Shown here piece by piece: positions 1 to 22,245 of a DNA stretch of 25,102 nucleotides. A program made the position numbers and the translations under genes. The first letter of the stretch is position 1, and each line of letters begins with the position of its first letter. The notes under the pieces are model-generated. The model saw only the letters and a list, made by a program, of their open reading frames with translations, did not search any database and was not told the origin of the DNA. The DNA comes from a virus (taxonomy: Duplodnaviria > Caudoviricetes): positions 1-25,102 of IMG/VR virus record IMGVR_UViG_3300045412_000768, one strand, 5' to 3'.

Positions 1-669
1 CTAACGCACCCGCCGCCCGGTCCACACCACCCGACCGACCAGGCGGATTGCGTTGAGGGGCAAATCGTCCCAGCTCCTGTAATGCGGATTGTCGCTGATC
101 ACCGACACGCGCCCCGGCCCCGGCGCGCGCGCGACGCGCTTCACCATCAGCACATCGTCCATCCGCAGCACATAGATGCCGTCGCGCAGCCGGCCCGCGG
201 CGTCGCCGCCGTCGACCAGGATATCGTCGCCGTCGCTGAGCGTCGGGGCCATCGAATCGCCCTCGACGCGGATGATGCTGAGCGCGCGCGGGTCGGCGCC
301 GAGGTCGCGGAGCCATTTGGGATCGAACGCGACCTGTCCCTCCACCGTTTCGCCGTCGACACTCGCCCCCGCGCCCGCCGAAGCACCGATCGCGAGCTTC
401 GGCACCAGCACCATGTCGCCGCCGCGCGATCGCGTTGGCACCGCGACACGCGGCGCAGGGCCGCCGAGCAGCGCTTCCGACACGCCCAGATAGGCGGCGA
501 TGCGTGCGCGATCCTCCTCCGCCAGCCGGCGCGGCGAGCCACGCTTGATATATTGCTGGATATAGGCGGGGTTGCGCCCGATGCGCTGCGAGAGCTGCGC
601 ATAATCGACGCCCTTTTCGGTCAGCAGGCGGTCGAGCGTGGCGCGCGGGTCGAGATCGAAATCAGTCAT
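1..669 (-). CDS. CI/LexA-like repressor: N-terminal HTH + S24 peptidase domain (probably host flank)
   Basis: HTH-like YAQLSQRIGRNPAYIQQYI; putative Ala-Gly autocleavage region (ASAGAG); S24 catalytic motifs GDSMAPTL and MVKRV; ends VGRVVW. Confidence 0.9.
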   Translation of the reverse strand: MTDFDLDPRATLDRLLTEKGVDYAQLSQRIGRNPAYIQQYIKRGSPRRLAEEDRARIAAYLGVSEALLGGPAPRVAVPTRSRGGDMVLVPKLAIGASAGAGASVDGETVEGQVAFDPKWLRDLGADPRALSIIRVEGDSMAPTLSDGDDILVDGGDAAGRLRDGIYVLRMDDVLMVKRVARAPGPGRVSVISDNPHYRSWDDLPLNAIRLVGRVVWTGRRVR

Positions 670-2482: not shown

Positions 2483-3718
2483 TCATGACCGGCGATTATC
2501 CAGCACGATGTCGAGATTGCGCGTCTCGGGCGTGATGTTGCGCGGGCGGCTCTTGTGGAAGCTGACGATGATCGGGAGCGCGTCGCCGCTGTCCTGGCGA
2601 ACAACGGCCTTCCAGATGCGCCCGGCCTCATCGGCGAAATAGACGAGCCGGCTGTCCCCCTGCTTCGCGATCACGATCGCGCGATCGATGATGTCGGGGA
2701 GCAGGCGATAGTCGCCGATCGTCAGTTCGGCGTGGCCCGCCGATATCTCCGGCGCCGCGCCGCTTTGCTTGCGATAGACGCCCGCGGGCATGACGACGAT
2801 GCGCGAGTTCGATCCGATCAGCGCCCGGTGCGCGTCATCGATGATGGCGACCGGAAACACGCCCTCGGGCATCGCGGCGAACTGTTCGAACGCGGGATCG
2901 TTGACCAGCTCGCGGAGCGTCTGGCGGGCGAGCTGGTCGAGGCCGGCGTCGAGCGCCGACGCCAGCGACGCGGTCGCGCGATCGGCGACGACGCGAAGAT
3001 GGGCGGTGCCGGGATTGTAGCCGAAGCCCGGCGCGATGCCTTCGGGCACTGAGACGATCTCGCCTGCGGCGGTGATGAAGTCGTGGCGCGGCGGATCGGG
3101 CGCCTCGCCGACCTTCCAGCCCATCCGCCGCATCCGGGCCTCGCTGACCTGTTCGACGCGGCAATTGCAGCCCCAGCCGTTCGGCGGGAAAAGCCACTGC
3201 CACGCGGGATGGTCGACCGGAAGGATCAGGCCGTGCCAGCTCTTGTGATTGAGGCGCGGGTGCTTGCGATAGTGGTCCGACAGGTAGCGGAGATAGGGGA
3301 ATAGCGCCTTTTCACGCTGATATTTGCGCCAGCGGCCCGCCGCGATGCTCATCCGCACGTTGGTGCGGTAGATAGTACGTAGACGGCGATCGTTGACTAC
3401 GACGGGTTCAGGCGTTCCGGTCAGCGCCTCGTTCTCCACGACGCCCCACCAGCCGTGCCTCTTCAGATCCGGCAGCAGATTGGCCTTCCACTGCTCGAAG
3501 GTGCCGCCGTTGCGGATGACGTCGTCGAGCGAGTTGCGGATCGAGACCAGGAGATCGAGCTTCGCGACCTTCGCCACGGTGAAGGCTGCGGCGTGCTCCT
3601 CCATCCATGTGTCGGTCCAATGCGTCGAGAAGAGATAGCCCGACCGCTCGGTCCAGGCGGCGACGATGTCGCCTGGGTCCATGTAAATCGTATCGGAGAG
3701 GATGGGGCGATCAGCCAC
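2483..3718 (-). CDS. Mu gpF-like head morphogenesis protein with C-terminal extension (PBECR2-like nuclease fold candidate)
   Basis: AFTVAKV, RLRTIYRTN, HKSWHGLILPVDHPAW, PPNGWGCNCRV, GFGYNPG; then ~170 extra aa with DYRLLPDII..WKAVV..IVSFHK. Confidence 0.9.
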   Translation of the reverse strand: MADRPILSDTIYMDPGDIVAAWTERSGYLFSTHWTDTWMEEHAAAFTVAKVAKLDLLVSIRNSLDDVIRNGGTFEQWKANLLPDLKRHGWWGVVENEALTGTPEPVVVNDRRLRTIYRTNVRMSIAAGRWRKYQREKALFPYLRYLSDHYRKHPRLNHKSWHGLILPVDHPAWQWLFPPNGWGCNCRVEQVSEARMRRMGWKVGEAPDPPRHDFITAAGEIVSVPEGIAPGFGYNPGTAHLRVVADRATASLASALDAGLDQLARQTLRELVNDPAFEQFAAMPEGVFPVAIIDDAHRALIGSNSRIVVMPAGVYRKQSGAAPEISAGHAELTIGDYRLLPDIIDRAIVIAKQGDSRLVYFADEAGRIWKAVVRQDSGDALPIIVSFHKSRPRNITPETRNLDIVLDNRRS

Positions 3719-4508: not shown

Positions 4509-4960
4509 CACTCCGCTCCCTCGGTAAGGGCGGCGCGTTGCTGTTCGACGCGGCGACGGTTCAACGTTGAGCGGATTGTGCAAAGCTTGGCGTGCAATCC
4601 TTGTCCGATACCCCAGTGGCTGCGCGAGTGTGATCGCTCGTTGATCTCGTCAATCAGCGCTATTGCTTCGTGAACTGCCATCCCGACGTCTCCGGAGAGG
4701 CCGTGCGATCCCTCCCCCGCATCGGCTTGCGATGGTCGTGAATGGGCGAGCATGGCTTCAAGCTCGGCGGGATCATCATAGGCATCTTGAGAGATCGCCC
4801 ACTGCCGTTCGATCTCGGCATCACTCAACGGGAACGGCGCCTTGTTGCCGTTGCTGATCATCGCTTCGGCGTAGCAAGCGCCAAAGCCCATCTCGAAAAA
4901 GAACTGCGCGGGGCTGCGTTCGTCCACCTGCGTCACAATCGTTTCATCGGTCATGGTCAT
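4508..4960 (-). CDS. Hypothetical protein (150 aa)
   Basis: ATGA overlap with the portal stop; GGAG RBS. Confidence 0.65.
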   Translation of the reverse strand: MTMTDETIVTQVDERSPAQFFFEMGFGACYAEAMISNGNKAPFPLSDAEIERQWAISQDAYDDPAELEAMLAHSRPSQADAGEGSHGLSGDVGMAVHEAIALIDEINERSHSRSHWGIGQGLHAKLCTIRSTLNRRRVEQQRAALTEGAE

Positions 4961-6996
4961 TCTCCATCGTCAGCATCGAGCGTGGCGGCGAGGCCTGCGG
5001 CCTCGAGGTCGGCGGCGATCGGGGCCTCGTCGCCGGGGGTGAGGCCGAGGGTGGCGAGCAGTTCCTCGGGCGAACGAGCGGCGCGAATAGCGCCGAGCAT
5101 CGGTTCGGTGAGCGCGCGGACGGCGCGGTAGCCGTCCTCGGCGATCAGATCGTCGACCAGCTTGTCGGTGGCGCTGTCGGGGGCTTCGGCCTGCGTCTCG
5201 GCGAAGCTCGCCTCGCGGATCCGCGTCTGCCAATCCTCCTCGAGCGGCTCGAACATCTCGGGGCCGAAGCGCAGCTCGCCGCGGAACGGCGTCACCTTCG
5301 ACAGGTCGACGTCGCCCTGCCAATAGGTGAAGGTGATGTGCGGCAGATAGTCGGGGTAATCCCAGCTGCAGCCGGCGTCGCGCATCTCGCGATTGCGCTG
5401 GTTGAGGTGGCCCGAGAAGAAGTGCAGCGCCACGGCGCCGTCGCTGCCGATGCGTTCGACCAGGCGCGGCCCGCCATAGGGTACGAGATGGTCGCTGGTG
5501 TCCGGTCCCCAGCCCCAGAAACCGCCCATCTTCATCCAGTTCACCGGGCGCCGCGAATACATCACGGTGGTGTGCAGATCCTTCGGGTCCATCAATCGGG
5601 TGAAGCCCTGCTCGCGCGCCCAGGCGAGCAGCTCGAGCGCGCTTTCCTCCTTCAGCGGCCGATGGACGTAAAGCGGGCGCGGATCGTCAGCCGCGAAGCT
5701 GATATTGCGGTCGTTGACGTTGGGATCGGCCTTTTCGGGCTGATCGTCCTCGCCGGCATCGGGATCGTCGACCTGGACGTCGTCGCCACCGGGGGCCGAG
5801 GTTTCCGATTTCGGCTTGCGGGCGTAGCCCTCGCCATAGGTGTCGTTGAAGCTCTCGTCGGTGCGCTGCCAGCCGAGCCGGTCGAGTACCTCGTCGGTTT
5901 GGGCGGTCTTTTGGACGTCCTCTTCCTCTTCGACCTGTCGCATGACGCGCGGCGCGGCGACGTCGGGGCCGAAATTCAGGTCGGTCCACCAACGCGCGAC
6001 CTCGGCGAAGCTGTCGGAAAGAAGGTCGGAGTCGGACTTGACCACCTCCATCTTCACATCGGCATGGACCTCGCCCTGGCTGCGGCTCGATCCGTTGTCG
6101 GTGGTCATCGTCTGCGACAGGACGATCTTCGCGATCGCGGCGTCCATGTAGCGGACCATCGTGCCGTAATCGGCGGTGCCCGATCGCGCGGCCTCGAGCA
6201 GATCGACCGCCATGCCCTCGGGGATCGTGATGCCGCTGTCGGTCGAGATCGCGCCGAGCGCCTCGAGCAGGCGCTCCTGGTCAGCCTTCGGAGTGCCGGG
6301 GCGATATTTGCCGATGGCGGTCGGCGAACCGAACTTGTCGAGAAAGATATTCCAGAAGCGGATGCCGTTGCGCTTGAACAGCGTCGGCCAGTAGAGCCAT
6401 TCGGCGAGGCCGCGGCCGTAGGGCTCGTCGTCGTTGGTACCGCCGACCTTGAACACCCAGAATTTGCGATCCGGCAAGATCTCGCCGAGGCCGCCGACCG
6501 ATGTCAGCAGGCGCAAGCGACCCTGGACGTCATAGCGGAACCGGCGGGCGTGGCGGACCTTGATCGCGCCGATGTCGATCAGGCCGTCGCGGACCTCCCA
6601 CATGATTTCTGCGACTGCAGGGCCGTAGAAGACCGCCCAGAGCATCTTGCCCGTGATGCGGTCCCAGCCGATGCGGTCGATCGTGTTGCTGAACGCCTCG
6701 GCCGCGGCGACAGATCGCGGGTCGGTTTCCTCGCCGGCCACGACGTCCCATGTCCGCGACACCACGGCGCCGCGGCGCTGCTGCATCGTCGAAAAGACCT
6801 GATCGTCCTGCAGGATGCGGTCGTAGATGCCCCAATCGACCGAGCCGGCGAGGCGCGGGTCTTTCGGTTCGCGCAGGCCAGTGATGAACGGCTGGGTGAT
6901 GTCGCGGCCGTCGGCCGTCGTGGCGATCTCGCCCGCCAGATCGGCGGGTAGCGTCGTCTTGGCAGCGCGGGTGCGCGTGCCCCTGGGACCAGTCAT
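4957..6996 (-). CDS. Mu gp29-like (DUF935) portal protein with inserted Acb1-like 2H phosphoesterase domain (aa ~435-598)
   Basis: Portal motifs PYGRGLAEWLYWP, FLDKFGSP, IAKIVLSQTMTT, GEVH; insert carries LHTTVMYS and YLPHITFTY; directly follows the terminase. Confidence 0.92.
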   Translation of the reverse strand: MTGPRGTRTRAAKTTLPADLAGEIATTADGRDITQPFITGLREPKDPRLAGSVDWGIYDRILQDDQVFSTMQQRRGAVVSRTWDVVAGEETDPRSVAAAEAFSNTIDRIGWDRITGKMLWAVFYGPAVAEIMWEVRDGLIDIGAIKVRHARRFRYDVQGRLRLLTSVGGLGEILPDRKFWVFKVGGTNDDEPYGRGLAEWLYWPTLFKRNGIRFWNIFLDKFGSPTAIGKYRPGTPKADQERLLEALGAISTDSGITIPEGMAVDLLEAARSGTADYGTMVRYMDAAIAKIVLSQTMTTDNGSSRSQGEVHADVKMEVVKSDSDLLSDSFAEVARWWTDLNFGPDVAAPRVMRQVEEEEDVQKTAQTDEVLDRLGWQRTDESFNDTYGEGYARKPKSETSAPGGDDVQVDDPDAGEDDQPEKADPNVNDRNISFAADDPRPLYVHRPLKEESALELLAWAREQGFTRLMDPKDLHTTVMYSRRPVNWMKMGGFWGWGPDTSDHLVPYGGPRLVERIGSDGAVALHFFSGHLNQRNREMRDAGCSWDYPDYLPHITFTYWQGDVDLSKVTPFRGELRFGPEMFEPLEEDWQTRIREASFAETQAEAPDSATDKLVDDLIAEDGYRAVRALTEPMLGAIRAARSPEELLATLGLTPGDEAPIAADLEAAGLAATLDADDGE

Positions 6997-8660
6997 AGCC
7001 CGTAACCTCCATCATTCTTGCGCGCGACGGTGCCGAAGCCGCGCTGGGTGAGTTCCATCTCGCCGCCCGTCGTCGCGCGGTTGCCGGAGCTGAGAAATTC
7101 GATGTCGCCGGGATCTTCGTTCGCGGCGGCGACGAGGTGCATTGCCGAGATCGCGGTATCGCCGTGGCGCTTCGCGATCTTGCCGTCCTCCTTGCTCGCG
7201 CGCGGCGAGTCGGGGATCTTCGGCACACCGCGCACCTGCTTGATCATCCGGATATCGTCGAGGACGCCCTCGTCGAACGGGAGGAGAAGGTTGCGGTCCT
7301 CGATGCCCGATTTGAGCAGCGGCATGTACTGCAGGTACGTCTTGTCGCTGGCCATCACCGCTTCGATGACATCGAAGCCGAACAGCATCTGCAGGGCTTC
7401 GGCGAGCGCCGAGCCGTTCCCGCGACCATCGACCTTGCCGCGCGCGAAGTGCGGCACGCGGTTGATCAGCCATTCGATGATGAACTGCTGATCCGAGAAG
7501 GGCACATTGCGCATCTCGAGCGTCAGGCGCGTTACGAGGCGCATGTATTCGTCATGCTGTCCGAACATGACGGGCGAGACGTCCCCGCTGCGCGCGAAAT
7601 CCTGCCCCATGAAAGTGCGGCGTGTGGGATCGAAATTCGCGAGCCAGGGCTTGACCTCGGCCTCGAGGAATTCGAGCAGCCAGTCGCGACGGCGATCCTC
7701 GTGCCAGCGCTCGAACCCGTCGGGGCAGCGCAAGCGGACGACGGGCAAGTCCTTCGACATCGCCTCGAGGATCGTGGCGCGGGCGAGATAGGTACCCGAC
7801 CCGCGCGACGGAATCACGTCCAGCTCTTCGTCCGCGGCCTCGAGATAGGATTTGCGGATGCCCGCTTCCCATGCCTGCTCGGCCTCCAGCGTCCATTCCT
7901 TGCCGTTGACCAGGCAGATGCGTTTGTAGAGGCCCGCGGCGATCGCGTCCTTCAGGGTGATGCGCTGGACGTAGCCGGCGCGCTTGCCCGCGCGGATCTC
8001 CTCGATCAGCGTATTGAAATAGTTATCGGTCCCGTCGTGGGTCGAAATCACGATGACCTGGCCGCCCCACATCAGGGCCGCGAGGATGGCCTTGATCAGC
8101 TGCTCGAGGTTGTCGTGAAAGGCCGCTTCATCGATGATGAAGATGCCCTGCTTGCCGCGCACCGATCGAGGGCTCGACGGGAGGGCTGCGACGGCCTTGC
8201 CTGAGGGGAAGTCCACGCGGAAAGCCTTCACCGACTTGCCCGCGTCGCCGTTGATCAGGAAGCCACCCTGCGCTTCGGTCACCACCTGATCGCGGCGATA
8301 ATCGGCGTCCTTGGCGTCGACCAGGACATCGCCTTTGGCATCGAGGAAGCTGCCATCCTCGCGCTTCACGACGTAAGCGACATTTTCGTCCGGCAGCGAC
8401 ACGACGACATCGTCGAAGGCCTTTGCGAAATCGGCGCAATAGCCGATGAATTCGCGGGCCATGTCGAGGTTGTAGCCGATGTAATAGACGTTCTGCGGCG
8501 CACGCGCGGCCGAGGCGGCGAGATCAGCATAGGGCGCGAACGCATAAGACAAGCCGATGCGACGGGACTTCTCGACGATCAGCAGCTGATGCTCGTCGGC
8601 CAGGGCAAGGCTTTCCTGCTGGTATGGGAGCAGGACTTCGGGGGCGGCTACCTCCGACAT
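6993..8660 (-). CDS. Terminase large subunit (Mu gp28-like); start at 8660 rather than 8999
   Basis: LLPYQQ, KSRRIGLS (Walker A region), IIDEAAFH (Walker B), ISTHDG, GQDFARSGD, HGD. Confidence 0.93.
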   Translation of the reverse strand: MSEVAAPEVLLPYQQESLALADEHQLLIVEKSRRIGLSYAFAPYADLAASAARAPQNVYYIGYNLDMAREFIGYCADFAKAFDDVVVSLPDENVAYVVKREDGSFLDAKGDVLVDAKDADYRRDQVVTEAQGGFLINGDAGKSVKAFRVDFPSGKAVAALPSSPRSVRGKQGIFIIDEAAFHDNLEQLIKAILAALMWGGQVIVISTHDGTDNYFNTLIEEIRAGKRAGYVQRITLKDAIAAGLYKRICLVNGKEWTLEAEQAWEAGIRKSYLEAADEELDVIPSRGSGTYLARATILEAMSKDLPVVRLRCPDGFERWHEDRRRDWLLEFLEAEVKPWLANFDPTRRTFMGQDFARSGDVSPVMFGQHDEYMRLVTRLTLEMRNVPFSDQQFIIEWLINRVPHFARGKVDGRGNGSALAEALQMLFGFDVIEAVMASDKTYLQYMPLLKSGIEDRNLLLPFDEGVLDDIRMIKQVRGVPKIPDSPRASKEDGKIAKRHGDTAISAMHLVAAANEDPGDIEFLSSGNRATTGGEMELTQRGFGTVARKNDGGYGL

Positions 8661-17740: not shown

Positions 17741-17778
17741 GACGACTTGTCAATATGACCGGTAAAATGACAGGTCAA
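17740..17778. promoter_or_regulatory. Immunity switch: TGAC/GTCA operator repeats overlapping both starts
   Basis: TGAC-N5-GTCA 17740-17752; TGACCGGTAA 17756-17765; TGACAGGTCA 17768-17777; minus-strand TTGACC-17-TATTGA. Confidence 0.55.
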
Positions 17779-18459
17779 CCGAAAAATGAGCGGGCGCGCG
17801 TCGTCGGCTGGTCGCAGGATGCCGCGGACAGGTTGAAAGAGGCCGTCAAGGCCTACGGCCCCGTGGGTTCGGTGGCGGAATTGGTGGGGATCAAGCGGCA
17901 ATCATTGAGCGAGATCCTTCAGGGGCGAGCGACGCCAACGGTCGGAACCTTCGAGAAATTGTGCGAGCTGCTGAAGGTGCGTCCGGCCTTCATCCTGGTG
18001 GTAGAGGACGTTGACGAAGATGTGGCCGAACCATCGGAGGACATGGCCGGTGTCGTCGCCATCAACGAAATCAACCTCGCTTACGGCATGGGTGCGACGT
18101 TCATCGACGGTGGGCCTGTCAAGGAAACTGTCCGGTATTTTGCGCTGGACTGGCTGCGCGTCTATACGCAGGCGCCGCCAAGCCAGCTGCGTTTCGCGCC
18201 GGGGCGCGGCAATTCGATGTCGCCGACGATCGACGACGGCGACATCATGTTGATCGACCTGTCGGAAAAGACGCCGAGTTTCGCGGATCTGATATGGGTG
18301 TGCGCCATCGGCGAAATGGGGATGGTCAAACGGCTGTCGGCGAAGCCGGGCGGCGCGATCGTCATCAAGAGCGACAATCCGAGCGTTCCCGACGATATCG
18401 TTCACGACGGCGAGATCCATGTTGTCGGCCGCGTCGTCGCGGTCATAAAGCGAGTTTAG
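17755..18459 (+). CDS. Prophage repressor, XRE HTH + S24 peptidase (start 17755 or 17767)
   Basis: VAELVGIKRQSLSEILQG HTH; GNSMSPTIDDGD and MVKRL; divergent from ner. Confidence 0.92.
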   Translation: MTGKMTGQPKNERARVVGWSQDAADRLKEAVKAYGPVGSVAELVGIKRQSLSEILQGRATPTVGTFEKLCELLKVRPAFILVVEDVDEDVAEPSEDMAGVVAINEINLAYGMGATFIDGGPVKETVRYFALDWLRVYTQAPPSQLRFAPGRGNSMSPTIDDGDIMLIDLSEKTPSFADLIWVCAIGEMGMVKRLSAKPGGAIVIKSDNPSVPDDIVHDGEIHVVGRVVAVIKRV

Positions 18460-19096: not shown

Positions 19097-20083
19097 ATGA
19101 CGATTGAAACCGCCACCGACAAGCCGTTGAAGCCGATCCGGATATTCCGGAAAGGGACGTTCACGTCGGTCGAGGGCGACCAGATCACCTTCGGTGAAGC
19201 CGAGCTGGCGGGCATCGTCTCCAGCTATAACGCCGAAGCCAACCCCGCGCCGCTGGTCGTCGGGCATCCCAAGCTCAACGATCCGGCCTATGGCTGGGTC
19301 GATCGTCTGGCGATCGAGGATGGCGAGGTTGTCGCCTATCCGGATCCAAAGCTGACCGAGCCGGCGTTCGCCGAGGCTGTCAATGCCGGGCGCTATCGCA
19401 AGATCTCCGCGCAATTCTATCCGCCCGCCAACGCCAACAACCCGGTGCCGGGCGAATATTACCTGAAGCATGTCGGCTTCCTCGGCGCGCACCCGCCCTC
19501 GGTCAAAGGCCTGGGCACGGTGAGCTTCGCCGACGGCGATGTCGGCCCCCTCGTCACCTTCGAACAGGAGAATGTCATGTCGGACAGCAACGACAAAGAT
19601 CGCGAAAGCAAGGATAAGGAAGTCAGCTTCGCCGAGCGCGAGAAGGCGCTCAGCGACCGCGAGGCCGCGATCAAGGCGCGCGAGGATGCGGCCAACGAAA
19701 AGGCCGCGGCGGATCGTCACGACGCCAATGTCAGCTTTGCCGAGGGGCTTTTCGCCGCCGCGAAGATCAAGCCCGAGGGCAAGGATCTGCTGATCGGCGT
19801 GCTCGACGCGCTGGGCGAATCGAACGCCGACACGATCAGCTTTGGCGAAGGCGCCGAGCTGACGCCGCGCGATGCGCTGGTCAAGCTGCTCGATGCGGCG
19901 CAGCCGCTCGTCAGCCTGGGCGAGGCCGCGGCCGACGACGGCAAGGCGATCGGCGAGCTCGATCCCGCCGCTATCGCCGAAGAGGCCGCCTCGTTTGCCG
20001 AGAGCGAAGCCAAGGCGGGTCGCCCGATCTCGACGGCGCGCGCCGTCCGTCACGTCACCGAAAAAGCAAAGAAGGGAGCATAA
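19097..20083 (+). CDS. Prohead protease/scaffold (Mu gpI-like)
   Basis: IFRKGT, APLVVGHP..PAYGWV, YRKISAQFY, YLKHVGFLGAHPPSVKGL; acidic coiled-coil C-half. Confidence 0.9.
   Translation: MTIETATDKPLKPIRIFRKGTFTSVEGDQITFGEAELAGIVSSYNAEANPAPLVVGHPKLNDPAYGWVDRLAIEDGEVVAYPDPKLTEPAFAEAVNAGRYRKISAQFYPPANANNPVPGEYYLKHVGFLGAHPPSVKGLGTVSFADGDVGPLVTFEQENVMSDSNDKDRESKDKEVSFAEREKALSDREAAIKAREDAANEKAAADRHDANVSFAEGLFAAAKIKPEGKDLLIGVLDALGESNADTISFGEGAELTPRDALVKLLDAAQPLVSLGEAAADDGKAIGELDPAAIAEEAASFAESEAKAGRPISTARAVRHVTEKAKKGA
19577..20083 (+). CDS. Putative nested in-frame scaffold protein (Mu gpZ-like)
   Basis: Internal AGGAG RBS before in-frame ATG (M161, MSDSNDK). Confidence 0.6.
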   Translation: MSDSNDKDRESKDKEVSFAEREKALSDREAAIKAREDAANEKAAADRHDANVSFAEGLFAAAKIKPEGKDLLIGVLDALGESNADTISFGEGAELTPRDALVKLLDAAQPLVSLGEAAADDGKAIGELDPAAIAEEAASFAESEAKAGRPISTARAVRHVTEKAKKGA

Positions 20084-20526: not shown

Positions 20527-21456
20527 ATGTCTCTGTCCGCCTACCCCATCGATCCGCACCTCACCGCGATCGCCATCGCCTACAGGAATGCGGCCTATAT
20601 CGCCGACCAGGTGCTGCCGCGCGTGCGCGTCGGCAAGCAGAAGTTCACCTTCCTGCAGTATGCGTCGGATCAGTACTTCAACATCCCCGACACGCTGGTC
20701 GGGCGCCGGTCGAAGCCGAACGAGGTCAACCTCGAGGCGACCGAGGTGACCGACTCGACGTTCGACTATGCGCTCGATGGCGGCATCCCCAAGGCCGACG
20801 AGGATAACGCCGACGAGCGTTACGATCCGCTGGGCAGCGAAGTCGAGTTCCTTCAGGAACTGATCGCCCTCGATCGGGAGGCGCGCGCAGCCGGTCTGGT
20901 GTTCACCAACGGCAACTACAACGCCGGCCTGCGCCAGACGCTCTCGGGCACGTCGCAGTTCAGCGACTATGCCAACAGCACGCCGATCAAGAAGATCAAC
21001 GAGGCGCTGGACCTTCCGCTCGTCCGCCCGAACCAGATGGTGTTCGGTCAGGAGGGGTGGACTTCGTTCCGCCAGCACCCCGAGATCGTCGAGGCGGTGC
21101 TCGGCACCGGCGCAAAGAAGGGCAATGTGACGCGCCAGGCCGTGGCCGAGCTGTTCGAGGTCGACGAAGTCGTCGTCGGCGCTTCGCGCAGCAACTCGGC
21201 CAAGCGCGGACAGGCTCCGGCGCTGACGCGGTTGTGGGGCAAGCATCTGGCGCTGACCCACAAGGCGCCGGTTCCCGAAGCGAAGGGCGCGCTGCAGTTC
21301 GGTGCCACCTTCCAGTGGGGCGACCGCATCGCTGCCCAGTGGGAAGACAAGAATATTGGCATGCGGGGCGGCACGGCCTGCCGTACCGGCGAGAGCGTCA
21401 AGGAACGCATCGTCGCGAACGACGCCGGCTACTTCTTCAACAACGCCTTCGCCTGA
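20527..21456 (+). CDS. Major capsid protein
   Basis: IDPHLTAIAIAYRN..IADQVLPRV, LDRE.R, PN.MV.G..W...RQHP; GAGGAG RBS; synteny. Confidence 0.9.
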   Translation: MSLSAYPIDPHLTAIAIAYRNAAYIADQVLPRVRVGKQKFTFLQYASDQYFNIPDTLVGRRSKPNEVNLEATEVTDSTFDYALDGGIPKADEDNADERYDPLGSEVEFLQELIALDREARAAGLVFTNGNYNAGLRQTLSGTSQFSDYANSTPIKKINEALDLPLVRPNQMVFGQEGWTSFRQHPEIVEAVLGTGAKKGNVTRQAVAELFEVDEVVVGASRSNSAKRGQAPALTRLWGKHLALTHKAPVPEAKGALQFGATFQWGDRIAAQWEDKNIGMRGGTACRTGESVKERIVANDAGYFFNNAFA

Positions 21457-21564: not shown

Positions 21565-22245
21565 ATGGGTAGCTACCCCGTACTCGAACGCCTCGACCAC
21601 AATGGCAAATCCTATGGCCCCGGCGATATCGTAGAGATCGACGACGCCGATACGGCCTATGACCTTCTGATTGTCGGCGTGATCGGCGCGGAAGGCGAGC
21701 CCGCCATTCTGTCGTCGACCATCATCGGTGGCGATCTCTTCGCAGCCGAGCCTCTGGCTGATGGAAATTTCCCGGTGCTCGAGCGCCTCGATCACGACGG
21801 CGAGACCTATAAGCCCGGCGACACGATCGTGATCACCAGCGCCAAGGTCGCGGCCGAGCTGCAGATCGCGGGCGCGATCGGCGGCGGTGCGGTTGTCGAC
21901 GCGCCCGTCGAGGACGATGCCCAGGATGATGGCGATGTCGACGAACCGGTCATCGAAACGCCTGCGGCGCCTGTTGCCGCTGCGGACGTAACGCCGCCCG
22001 CCGCCGAGACGAAGTCCGCCACGGAAACTGCTCCTGCCCCGACGCCCACTCCGACTCCGACGCCGACCCCGACCCCGACGCCCACTCCGACGCCCACTCC
22101 GACGCCCACTCCGACTCCGACGCCGACCCCGACCCCGACGCCCACTCCGACGCCCACTCCGGCCCCGTCGGCCAAGCCCGCCGGGGCGAAGCCGGCGGCC
22201 AAGAAGACCGCCGCCGCCAAGCCCGCCACTGCGACCAAGTCGTAA
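21565..22245 (+). CDS. Capsid-adjacent protein with two repeated small domains and a Pro-Thr linker
   Basis: [18 protein letters not shown] and [18 protein letters not shown]; (PT)20; Lys/Ala-rich tail. Confidence 0.8.
22039..22158 (+). repeat. (Pro-Thr)20 coding repeat = exact 60-bp tandem duplication
   Basis: 22039-22098 is identical to 22099-22158. Confidence 0.92.

Follow-up and report, generated by a model that had tools for sequence, protein, structure and literature searches.

Motifs shared with its own prohead protease flank an Acb1-family domain in the portal protein of a Mu/B3-like phage, suggesting release during head maturation

The prohead protease of phage T4, gp21, is directed by a short sequence motif. 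Together with gp245 of SPN3US, whose A-X-E sites were likewise mapped by mass spectrometry (PMC10052503), it exemplifies cutting at such motifs in the protease itself, the portal and ejected head proteins. Head maturation of phage Mu involves the protease gpI, the nested scaffold Z and the portal gp29/H, and in the cryo-electron microscopy (cryo-EM) structure of the virion gp29 lacks its final 124 residues, which was attributed to protease I with reference to Grimaud 1996 (PMC11915804). Phage enzymes of the Acb1 family degrade alarm nucleotides of bacteria. Acb1 of phages T4 (gp57B) and FBB1 is a stand-alone enzyme (PDB 7T26/7T27, PMC9117128), and 2H domains fused to portal or MuF proteins were described by Iyer et al. 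in 2017 and 2022, who proposed packaging, injection and action against nucleotide immune signalling (PMC5512222, PMC9503650); neither the fusion nor the idea of packaged anti-defence cargo is therefore new. Here we analyse a 25,102-nucleotide stretch of DNA (IMG/VR virus record IMGVR_UViG_3300045412_000768, hereafter the window), the provirus record of a Mu/B3-like transposable phage, in which an Acb1-family domain lies inside the portal protein between two copies of a motif that recurs in the phage's own prohead protease/scaffold.

Compared with the fusions of Iyer et al., the 2H domain is here likewise joined to a portal, but as an internal cassette between two defined motif copies and with the portal tail kept, whereas the passages describing theirs contain neither a release mechanism nor a cut motif. 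With Mu (PMC11915804), the locus shares the portal core, the helical tail, a scaffold-matching motif before that tail and a nested scaffold start. Mu, in contrast, has no cargo and its motif is LSA; the protease here is of the B3/BcepMu type, distantly like gpI, and removal of the portal C-terminus would be the corresponding step. Unlike the mapped sites of gp21 and gp245, the motif described here is a predicted one. A literature search, with supplements outside its scope, returned neither a test of portal-fused Acb1 nor a release mechanism for 2H-portal fusions; 'portal', 'fused' and 'fusion' are absent from the accessible text of a preprint on 2H phosphodiesterases (bioRxiv 2025.08.21.671373), as are 'portal' and 'fused' from that of the Acb1 paper (PMC9117128).

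Based on the locus and its relatives, we propose the following mechanism. An Acb1-family cassette would have been inserted where related portals bear a single motif, leaving one copy on each side. The phage's own prohead protease would then cut both copies during head maturation, freeing a 19-kDa domain in the prohead, and about 12 copies per head, given a dodecameric portal, would be retained and subsequently carried in the virion. Since a folded 19-kDa domain exceeds the pores of 13-15 Å seen in the JBD30 procapsid, inside which the portal crown lies (PMC11445458), freed domains would stay trapped. The assignment of the flanking motif as a prohead-protease site is very likely on sequence grounds, and we consider it probable that both flanks are cut and, likewise from the sequences, that a predicted 19-kDa phosphodiesterase is thereby released inside the prohead. 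Ejection and action in the next host is a tentative extension, and of the two fates, packaging with later ejection has only a slight edge over an effect exerted in the cell that makes the phage. The original prediction for this window, that maturation excises a free Acb1 either into the cytoplasm or into the head, is thus upheld in part: conservation, the single site of Acb1-free portals, tracking of the scaffold motif and the position of the Mu equivalent all argue for the flanks as protease sites, whereas direct release into the cytoplasm is less likely, given that the C-terminus of the portal points into the capsid.

The portal protein matches a full-length Mu gp29-type core, both by profile (PF06074) and by fold. 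In its AlphaFold model (mean predicted local distance difference test score, pLDDT, 71.8), residues 399-437 and 588-607 form low-confidence coil, with pLDDT below 50 at both flanks. The motif occurs as SFAAD at S433 and SFAET at S597, with a further SFAEV at S329, and the protease/scaffold contains SFAD at 143, SFAE at 177, SFAE at 213, SFGE at 248 and SFAE at 299, all at the positions first reported. Of the two flanks, the downstream SFAE (597) fits the pattern SF[AG][DE] of the own scaffold copies, while the upstream SFAA (433) lies outside it. Five or more SF[AG][DE] were reached in 0/20,000 shuffles of the protease/scaffold, two or more SF[AG][ADE] in 6/20,000 shuffles of portal residues 389-679, and the 28 other open reading frames of the window (5,775 aa) hold a single SF[AG][DE]. 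For either cutting register the excised product comprises 164 aa, in line with the size first estimated, with a computed mass of 19.1-19.2 kDa, and the double cut would leave a mature portal of about 48 kDa compared to 75.5 kDa uncut (computed). The locus and its relatives give a precise prediction of two cut sites, a 164-aa product and a 48-kDa mature portal. The fusion reading frame is no assembly artefact, since a contig from an independent lake sample covers 5144-5821, including both cassette junctions, with zero differences, and an identical portal protein is encoded on a 37.6-kb viral contig.

Conservation was assessed in the best 120 of 466 portal matches, which are 51-100% identical and all carry both Pfam domains, i.e. 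a set chosen for the fusion. [FL]A occupies 434-435 in 120/120 and 598-599 in 118/120, with both flanks present in 118/120; column counts were used here, as an alignment-free motif pattern gave false early matches (ELVD, GLSE, ELVA). Mean column conservation reaches 0.95 for the upstream and 0.88 for the downstream motif, compared to 0.39, 0.39 and 0.33 in the adjoining linkers and 0.70-0.74 in the folded domains, and the linkers range from 20 to 66 and from 13 to 37 aa in length. Both motifs are thus conserved around the domain amid variable linkers, as the cleavage proposal had implied. Leu replaces Phe at the upstream flank in three homologues, a small sample, all of which have Leu downstream too. 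The copy at S329, previously raised as a caveat, was ruled out as a cut site, as it is motif-like in only 11/120 and sits in a confident helix. Recent tandem duplication as the sole cause of the flanks, a second caveat, was ruled out by divergence of the DNA around the two motifs and by motif conservation amid diverged linkers; what remains of it is that the flanks stem from a doubling of an ancestral site, both copies then being kept under selection. As for the cutting register, Pro stands directly after the motif in 33/119 downstream flanks and 85/602 scaffold copies. Many proteases avoid Pro at P1'. This favours a cut earlier than the motif end, for instance between Phe and Ala. Alignment with the xDA phages described below points instead to cleavage behind the third residue of the motif, the pattern known from A-X-E of SPN3US (PMC10052503).

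In cultured relatives that lack Acb1, a single motif separates the core from the helical tail (B3 EFAE, BcepMu SFAE, YPCBV-1 GFAE, KS10 EFAA), and F[ASG][ED] is present at most 60 aa after the core in 60/83 protease-paired Acb1-free portals, compared to 6.9 expected from shuffles. Because Acb1-free relatives keep a single motif at the same place, we regard the Acb1 domain as a cassette at an ancestral site; judged from the sequences, its insertion doubled the site, and both copies were retained while the surrounding linkers diverged. Mapped onto a quickly built tree of 90 portal cores, the presence of the cassette requires 11 gains or losses, at least nine of them forced by strong branches, and seven sister pairs chosen from this tree differ by the cassette, the single motif being left in the Acb1-free member. 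Nature thus provides sister phages with and without the cassette.

Several other loci show variation at or near this position. A divergent Acb1 (L195:5114-7186), placed outside the main Mu-portal group on a fast tree, with a long branch that makes the placement unsure, has the flanks RFAA and RFAE and is possibly an independent insertion with matching flanks. A cyanobacterial portal (L111:740-2977) bears an InPase domain behind an LFSE motif that is absent in a relative, and further cyanobacterial Mu-type portals have other long extensions after F-small-acidic motifs (L099:9785-12205, with an HExxH region, and L136:9968-12655, with a stretch that matched no assigned domain). In RR1-B and RcapMu (L016:1666-3126, L015:1644-3125), part of the portal tail opens the gene annotated as MuF, and SFAE or SFAD comes next, here too at a domain border, and in L153 the portal and a MuF-like region share one frame, so the portal tail may link portal and MuF. 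About twenty portals of Magnetococcales prophages (L105-L142) end 4-30 residues past the core and are tailless; the tail profile gave no match in ten Magnetococcales loci.

A link to Mu is provided by the portal tail, whose residues 603-677 are homologous to gp29 433-510 (E 1e-12). The single LSA of the Mu portal, at L429, lies just before this tail, at the position of F598. The modelled chains cover 369-383 residues of the 512-aa Mu portal and 405 residues of the 526-aa JBD30 portal. At the Mu locus (L018:2555-4093 and 6057-7142), the classic processing of gpH may take place at the L429 LSA in the gp29 linker, a candidate cut site.

The motif in the portal tracks that of the own scaffold. Among 134 portal/protease pairs, 124 were non-identical among the matches listed, 114 passed the filters (scaffold of at least 150 aa with at least three motifs, portal tail of at least 80 aa) and a portal motif was present in 111. 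The residue ahead of Phe/Leu matched between portal and own scaffold at 0.474, compared to 0.249 for shuffled partners (n=111); at below 80% core identity the values were 0.406 and 0.227 (n=70), at below 60% 0.343 and 0.238 (n=27, p=0.006), and for Acb1-free portals alone 0.335 and 0.227 (n=28, p=0.003). The swap of motifs across families is a stronger view than this covariation within the family, with the limit that it covers few phages and that the motifs were read by eye. Mu contains LSA five times in the scaffold part of gpI and EAALSAE in the portal linker, and martha 12B12 repeats ALNR in its scaffold with AINR in the portal. Pam3 (PDB 8HDS), phiPSA1, RHEph04 and Ssp-JY40 have DUF1073-type portals (L286:2272-4137 for Pam3; L287, L288 and L289 for the others) with an Acb1 of the same clade, 36-48% identical, after the portal core, and xDA, repeated in their own proteases, precedes the same PRPLY start of Acb1. 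As here, the motif is shared with the own protease; in contrast, Acb1 forms the C-terminus of these portals and so has a single flank, xDA serves as the motif, and both the portal and the protease are of different families. In the accessible main text of the Pam3 structure paper (PMC9942802), 'cleav' and 'protease' are absent. The comparison predicts the recognition motif of Mu-family prohead proteases, namely LSA in Mu and FAE in B3/BcepMu, and offers cultured phages, Pam3, RHEph04 and Ssp-JY40, that bear the same domain on their portals.

A number of observations weigh against cleavage and release as proposed here. The covariation statistics remove relatedness only partly: the signal is gone at below 52% core identity (0.282 compared to 0.272, n=14, p=0.39), and the +2 motif position is not significant at 80% dereplication (p=0.12). 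In JBD30 the scaffold repeat AALT corresponds only loosely to the portal AALAT. The upstream flank, SFAA-D, has Ala where all five copies of the own scaffold carry Asp or Glu, and in 2/31 paired Acb1 portals this flank is degenerate or shifted (L087, L091). The protease is distantly like Mu gpI (hhalign E 0.07, Pfam Mu-like_Pro below cut-off), missing density in the cryo-EM structures can be disorder, the Mu model stopping about 40 residues before the motif, and the literature search, with subscription papers and supplements outside its scope, returned neither a mapped site for proteases of the Mu or B3 type nor a measured cut in any B3-type phage. The strongest objection to reading the motif purely as a cleavage signal comes from the structure model of the protease, where S177, S213 and S299 are part of confident helices, S248 belongs to an ordered turn and S143 is the only copy in a disordered linker; scaffolds are, however, known to be degraded in proheads. 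Finally, the position of W74 in Acb1 is non-aromatic here (R515/I516; Phe in 9/120), and the substrate of the cassette may therefore differ from that of Acb1.

The alternative that survives best accepts the cutting but lets the enzyme matter only in the producing cell, the late-gene fusion timing it to head assembly, when the cyclic-oligonucleotide-based antiphage signalling system (CBASS) triggers. Cutting would then mainly clear a bulky domain off the portal crown before packaging, the fragment being degraded, lost or inert in the virion. Escapers of type I CBASS map to the prohead protease and assembly proteins, hence late activation (bioRxiv 2023.05.21.541620; PMC13728456), small nucleotides could cross the procapsid pores, and twelve injected molecules would be few against a signal that arises late in infection. 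The same could be had more simply from a separate late gene; instead, members of this Acb1 clade recur as fusions to portals of two unrelated families, each time behind the family's own motif, and a second enzyme, InPase, stands behind the same motif in the cyanobacterial portal, which suggests targeting into the head. We accordingly hold exclusive action in the producing cell to be possible but doubtful. Delivery of Acb1 by the virion, if true, would be a new timing for anti-CBASS action. It is tempting to speculate further that the portal maturation site is a general cargo slot, in which immune-evasion enzymes are placed between doubled sites, the flanks are rewritten to the own protease on transfer between families, and twelve free anti-CBASS enzymes per head are injected with the DNA for a pre-emptive block of nucleotide immunity; cut sites would then be readable from sequence.

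Somewhat less likely, the released domain is a 2H phosphoesterase acting on another substrate, such as RNA 2',3'-cyclic ends, 2'-5' oligomers or other nucleotide signals, rather than a CBASS counter-defence. Besides the W74 position, identity to experimentally tested Acb1 of about 30% is compatible with such a role, RNase or oligoadenylate functions were listed for portal-fused 2H domains (PMC5512222), and SMODS nucleotidyltransferases above cut-off were present in only 2/24 mostly incomplete host genomes, unlinked to the cassette, a survey that we regard as uninformative. On the other side, the domain scores far above the Pfam cut-off for Acb1 (126.9 bits compared to 27, E 6e-37), and its HxT/HxT tetrad (H475, T477, H553, T555) is intact in 116/120 homologues. 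Of the ligand residues Y12, W74, F107, E141 and W147 listed for Acb1 (PMC9117128), the equivalents of Y12, F107, E141 and W147 are kept as Y443, Y547, E583 and W589 in our own reading of the alignment to 7T26, and the closest solved 2H folds are FBB1 Acb1 (7T26; Foldseek E 4e-8, template modelling (TM) score 0.75 over the target) and a phage phosphodiesterase. Compared to the stand-alone Acb1 of T4 and FBB1, the portal-fused domain thus shares PF23474, the 2H fold, the tetrad and, on this reading, four ligand-residue equivalents and lacks the W74 aromatic; its activity is predicted, and it is likely a cyclic-nucleotide phosphodiesterase.

It appears improbable that the motif is an uncut docking or structural element, e.g. 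a contact within the scaffold coiled coil or a peptide that binds capsid or protease, with Acb1 staying tethered. A structural or docking role is possible because predicted helices contain three of the five scaffold copies and an ordered turn a fourth, and an FAE is conserved in a helix of the protease domain itself (19367-19375, + strand; F91 kept in 93/96), where it may play a structural part or serve for self-inactivation by an internal cut. The first motif copy marks the protease/scaffold border in every family examined, and the portal copies lie in disordered linkers, both speaking against docking. The C-terminus of the Mu portal is reported to be cut by protease I (PMC11915804), and T4-like and giant-phage proteases use comparable short motifs (A-X-E in SPN3US, PMC10052503). 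In the protease, H57, S104 and H125 are invariant in 96/96 aligned sequences and are likely the catalytic residues. A profile search of solved structures returned zero relatives of the protease, and complex prediction for protease residues 8-139 with portal residues 584-615 scored 0.02.

Least probable is that cutting is confined to the ancestral site, the downstream SFAE, with the upstream SFAA a conserved start of the Acb1 fold or an insertion relic and Acb1 staying on the portal: although xFAA stands at nearly all upstream flanks, the conserved DDPRPLYV follows directly and the own scaffold copies are all acidic at +2, the same Acb1 clade has xDA instead of Phe before its PRPLY start in DUF1073-type portals, so that the Phe is not part of the fold, the segment is modelled as disordered, xFAA is found in 26/31 paired scaffolds and as the single portal motif in KS10 and 6/80 Acb1-free portals, and the DNA divergence of the flanks argues against a recent duplication.

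Table 1. Features of the portal and head-maturation loci, with positions in the window.
Feature	Position	Strand	Evidence
Portal of 679 aa, made up of a Mu gp29-type core, a linker, the Acb1 cassette and a helical tail	4957..6996	-	Pfam, structure model
Portal_Mu core, residues 57-388	5833..6828	-	Pfam PF06074 E 8e-100; closest in fold to the portals of JBD30 and Mu
SFAA upstream of the domain (433-436), predicted to be cut by the protease	5689..5700	-	[FL]A in 120/120; coil, pLDDT <50
Acb1-family 2H phosphodiesterase domain (predicted), residues 441-591	5224..5676	-	Pfam PF23474, tetrad H475/T477/H553/T555
SFAE downstream of the domain (597-600), predicted to be cut by the protease, counterpart of the ancestral single site	5197..5208	-	[FL]A in 118/120; sister pairs; Mu equivalent L429
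S329 SFAE, chance copy in core helix	6001..6012	-	motif-like in 11/120; helix 316-341, pLDDT ~90
Helical portal tail, residues 603-677	4966..5190	-	homologous to Mu gp29 433-510, which the virion structure lacks
Prohead protease/scaffold, 328 aa	19097..20083	+	PHROG 976 E 1.5e-75; Mu-like_Pro E 7.6e-4, under cut-off
SFAD (143-146), predicted release site in disordered linker directly after protease domain	19523..19534	+	motif, alignment, structure model
Probable nested scaffold from M161, holds S177, S213, S248 and S299 motifs	19577..20083	+	AGGAG upstream; nested scaffold genes annotated in B3, BcepMu, RcapMu, Mu
MuF minor head protein, downstream of portal	2483..3718	-	Pfam/PHROG matches
Major capsid protein	20527..21456	+	PHROG match; without any SF[AG] or F[AG][DE] motif

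Pfam matches in the window comprise a Mu transposase, an AAA transposition protein, Gam, gp27, portal, MuF, gp36, a gpG-like protein and a tail terminator, and PHROG-type matches add the head maturation protease and the major head protein; NCBIfam yielded no portal or protease model. The head genes lie in two blocks with the early region between them, a split also present in KS10 (PMC2628397). Nearly all named portal homologues are from Sphingomonadales, and the host is therefore probably a sphingomonad. Among contigs of four lake samples no joint removing the cassette was found, which is uninformative on absence as contigs drop rare variants, and no RNA holder is listed for the portal. The C-terminal 170 aa of MuF (2483-2998, - strand) gave zero Pfam matches; by eye they presumably resemble PBECR nuclease domains.

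Two separate helix-turn-helix (HTH)/S24 repressors are encoded at 1-669 (- strand) and 17755-18459 (+ strand), the former at the window edge with a Cro-like partner, such that it may belong to the host or another element. A head-region protein at 21565-22245 (+ strand) combines DUF7210 domains with a stretch of about 20 Pro-Thr repeat units at 22039-22161. Near the left end, a D12-class adenine methyltransferase (1340-2194, - strand) represents a second likely counter-defence gene.

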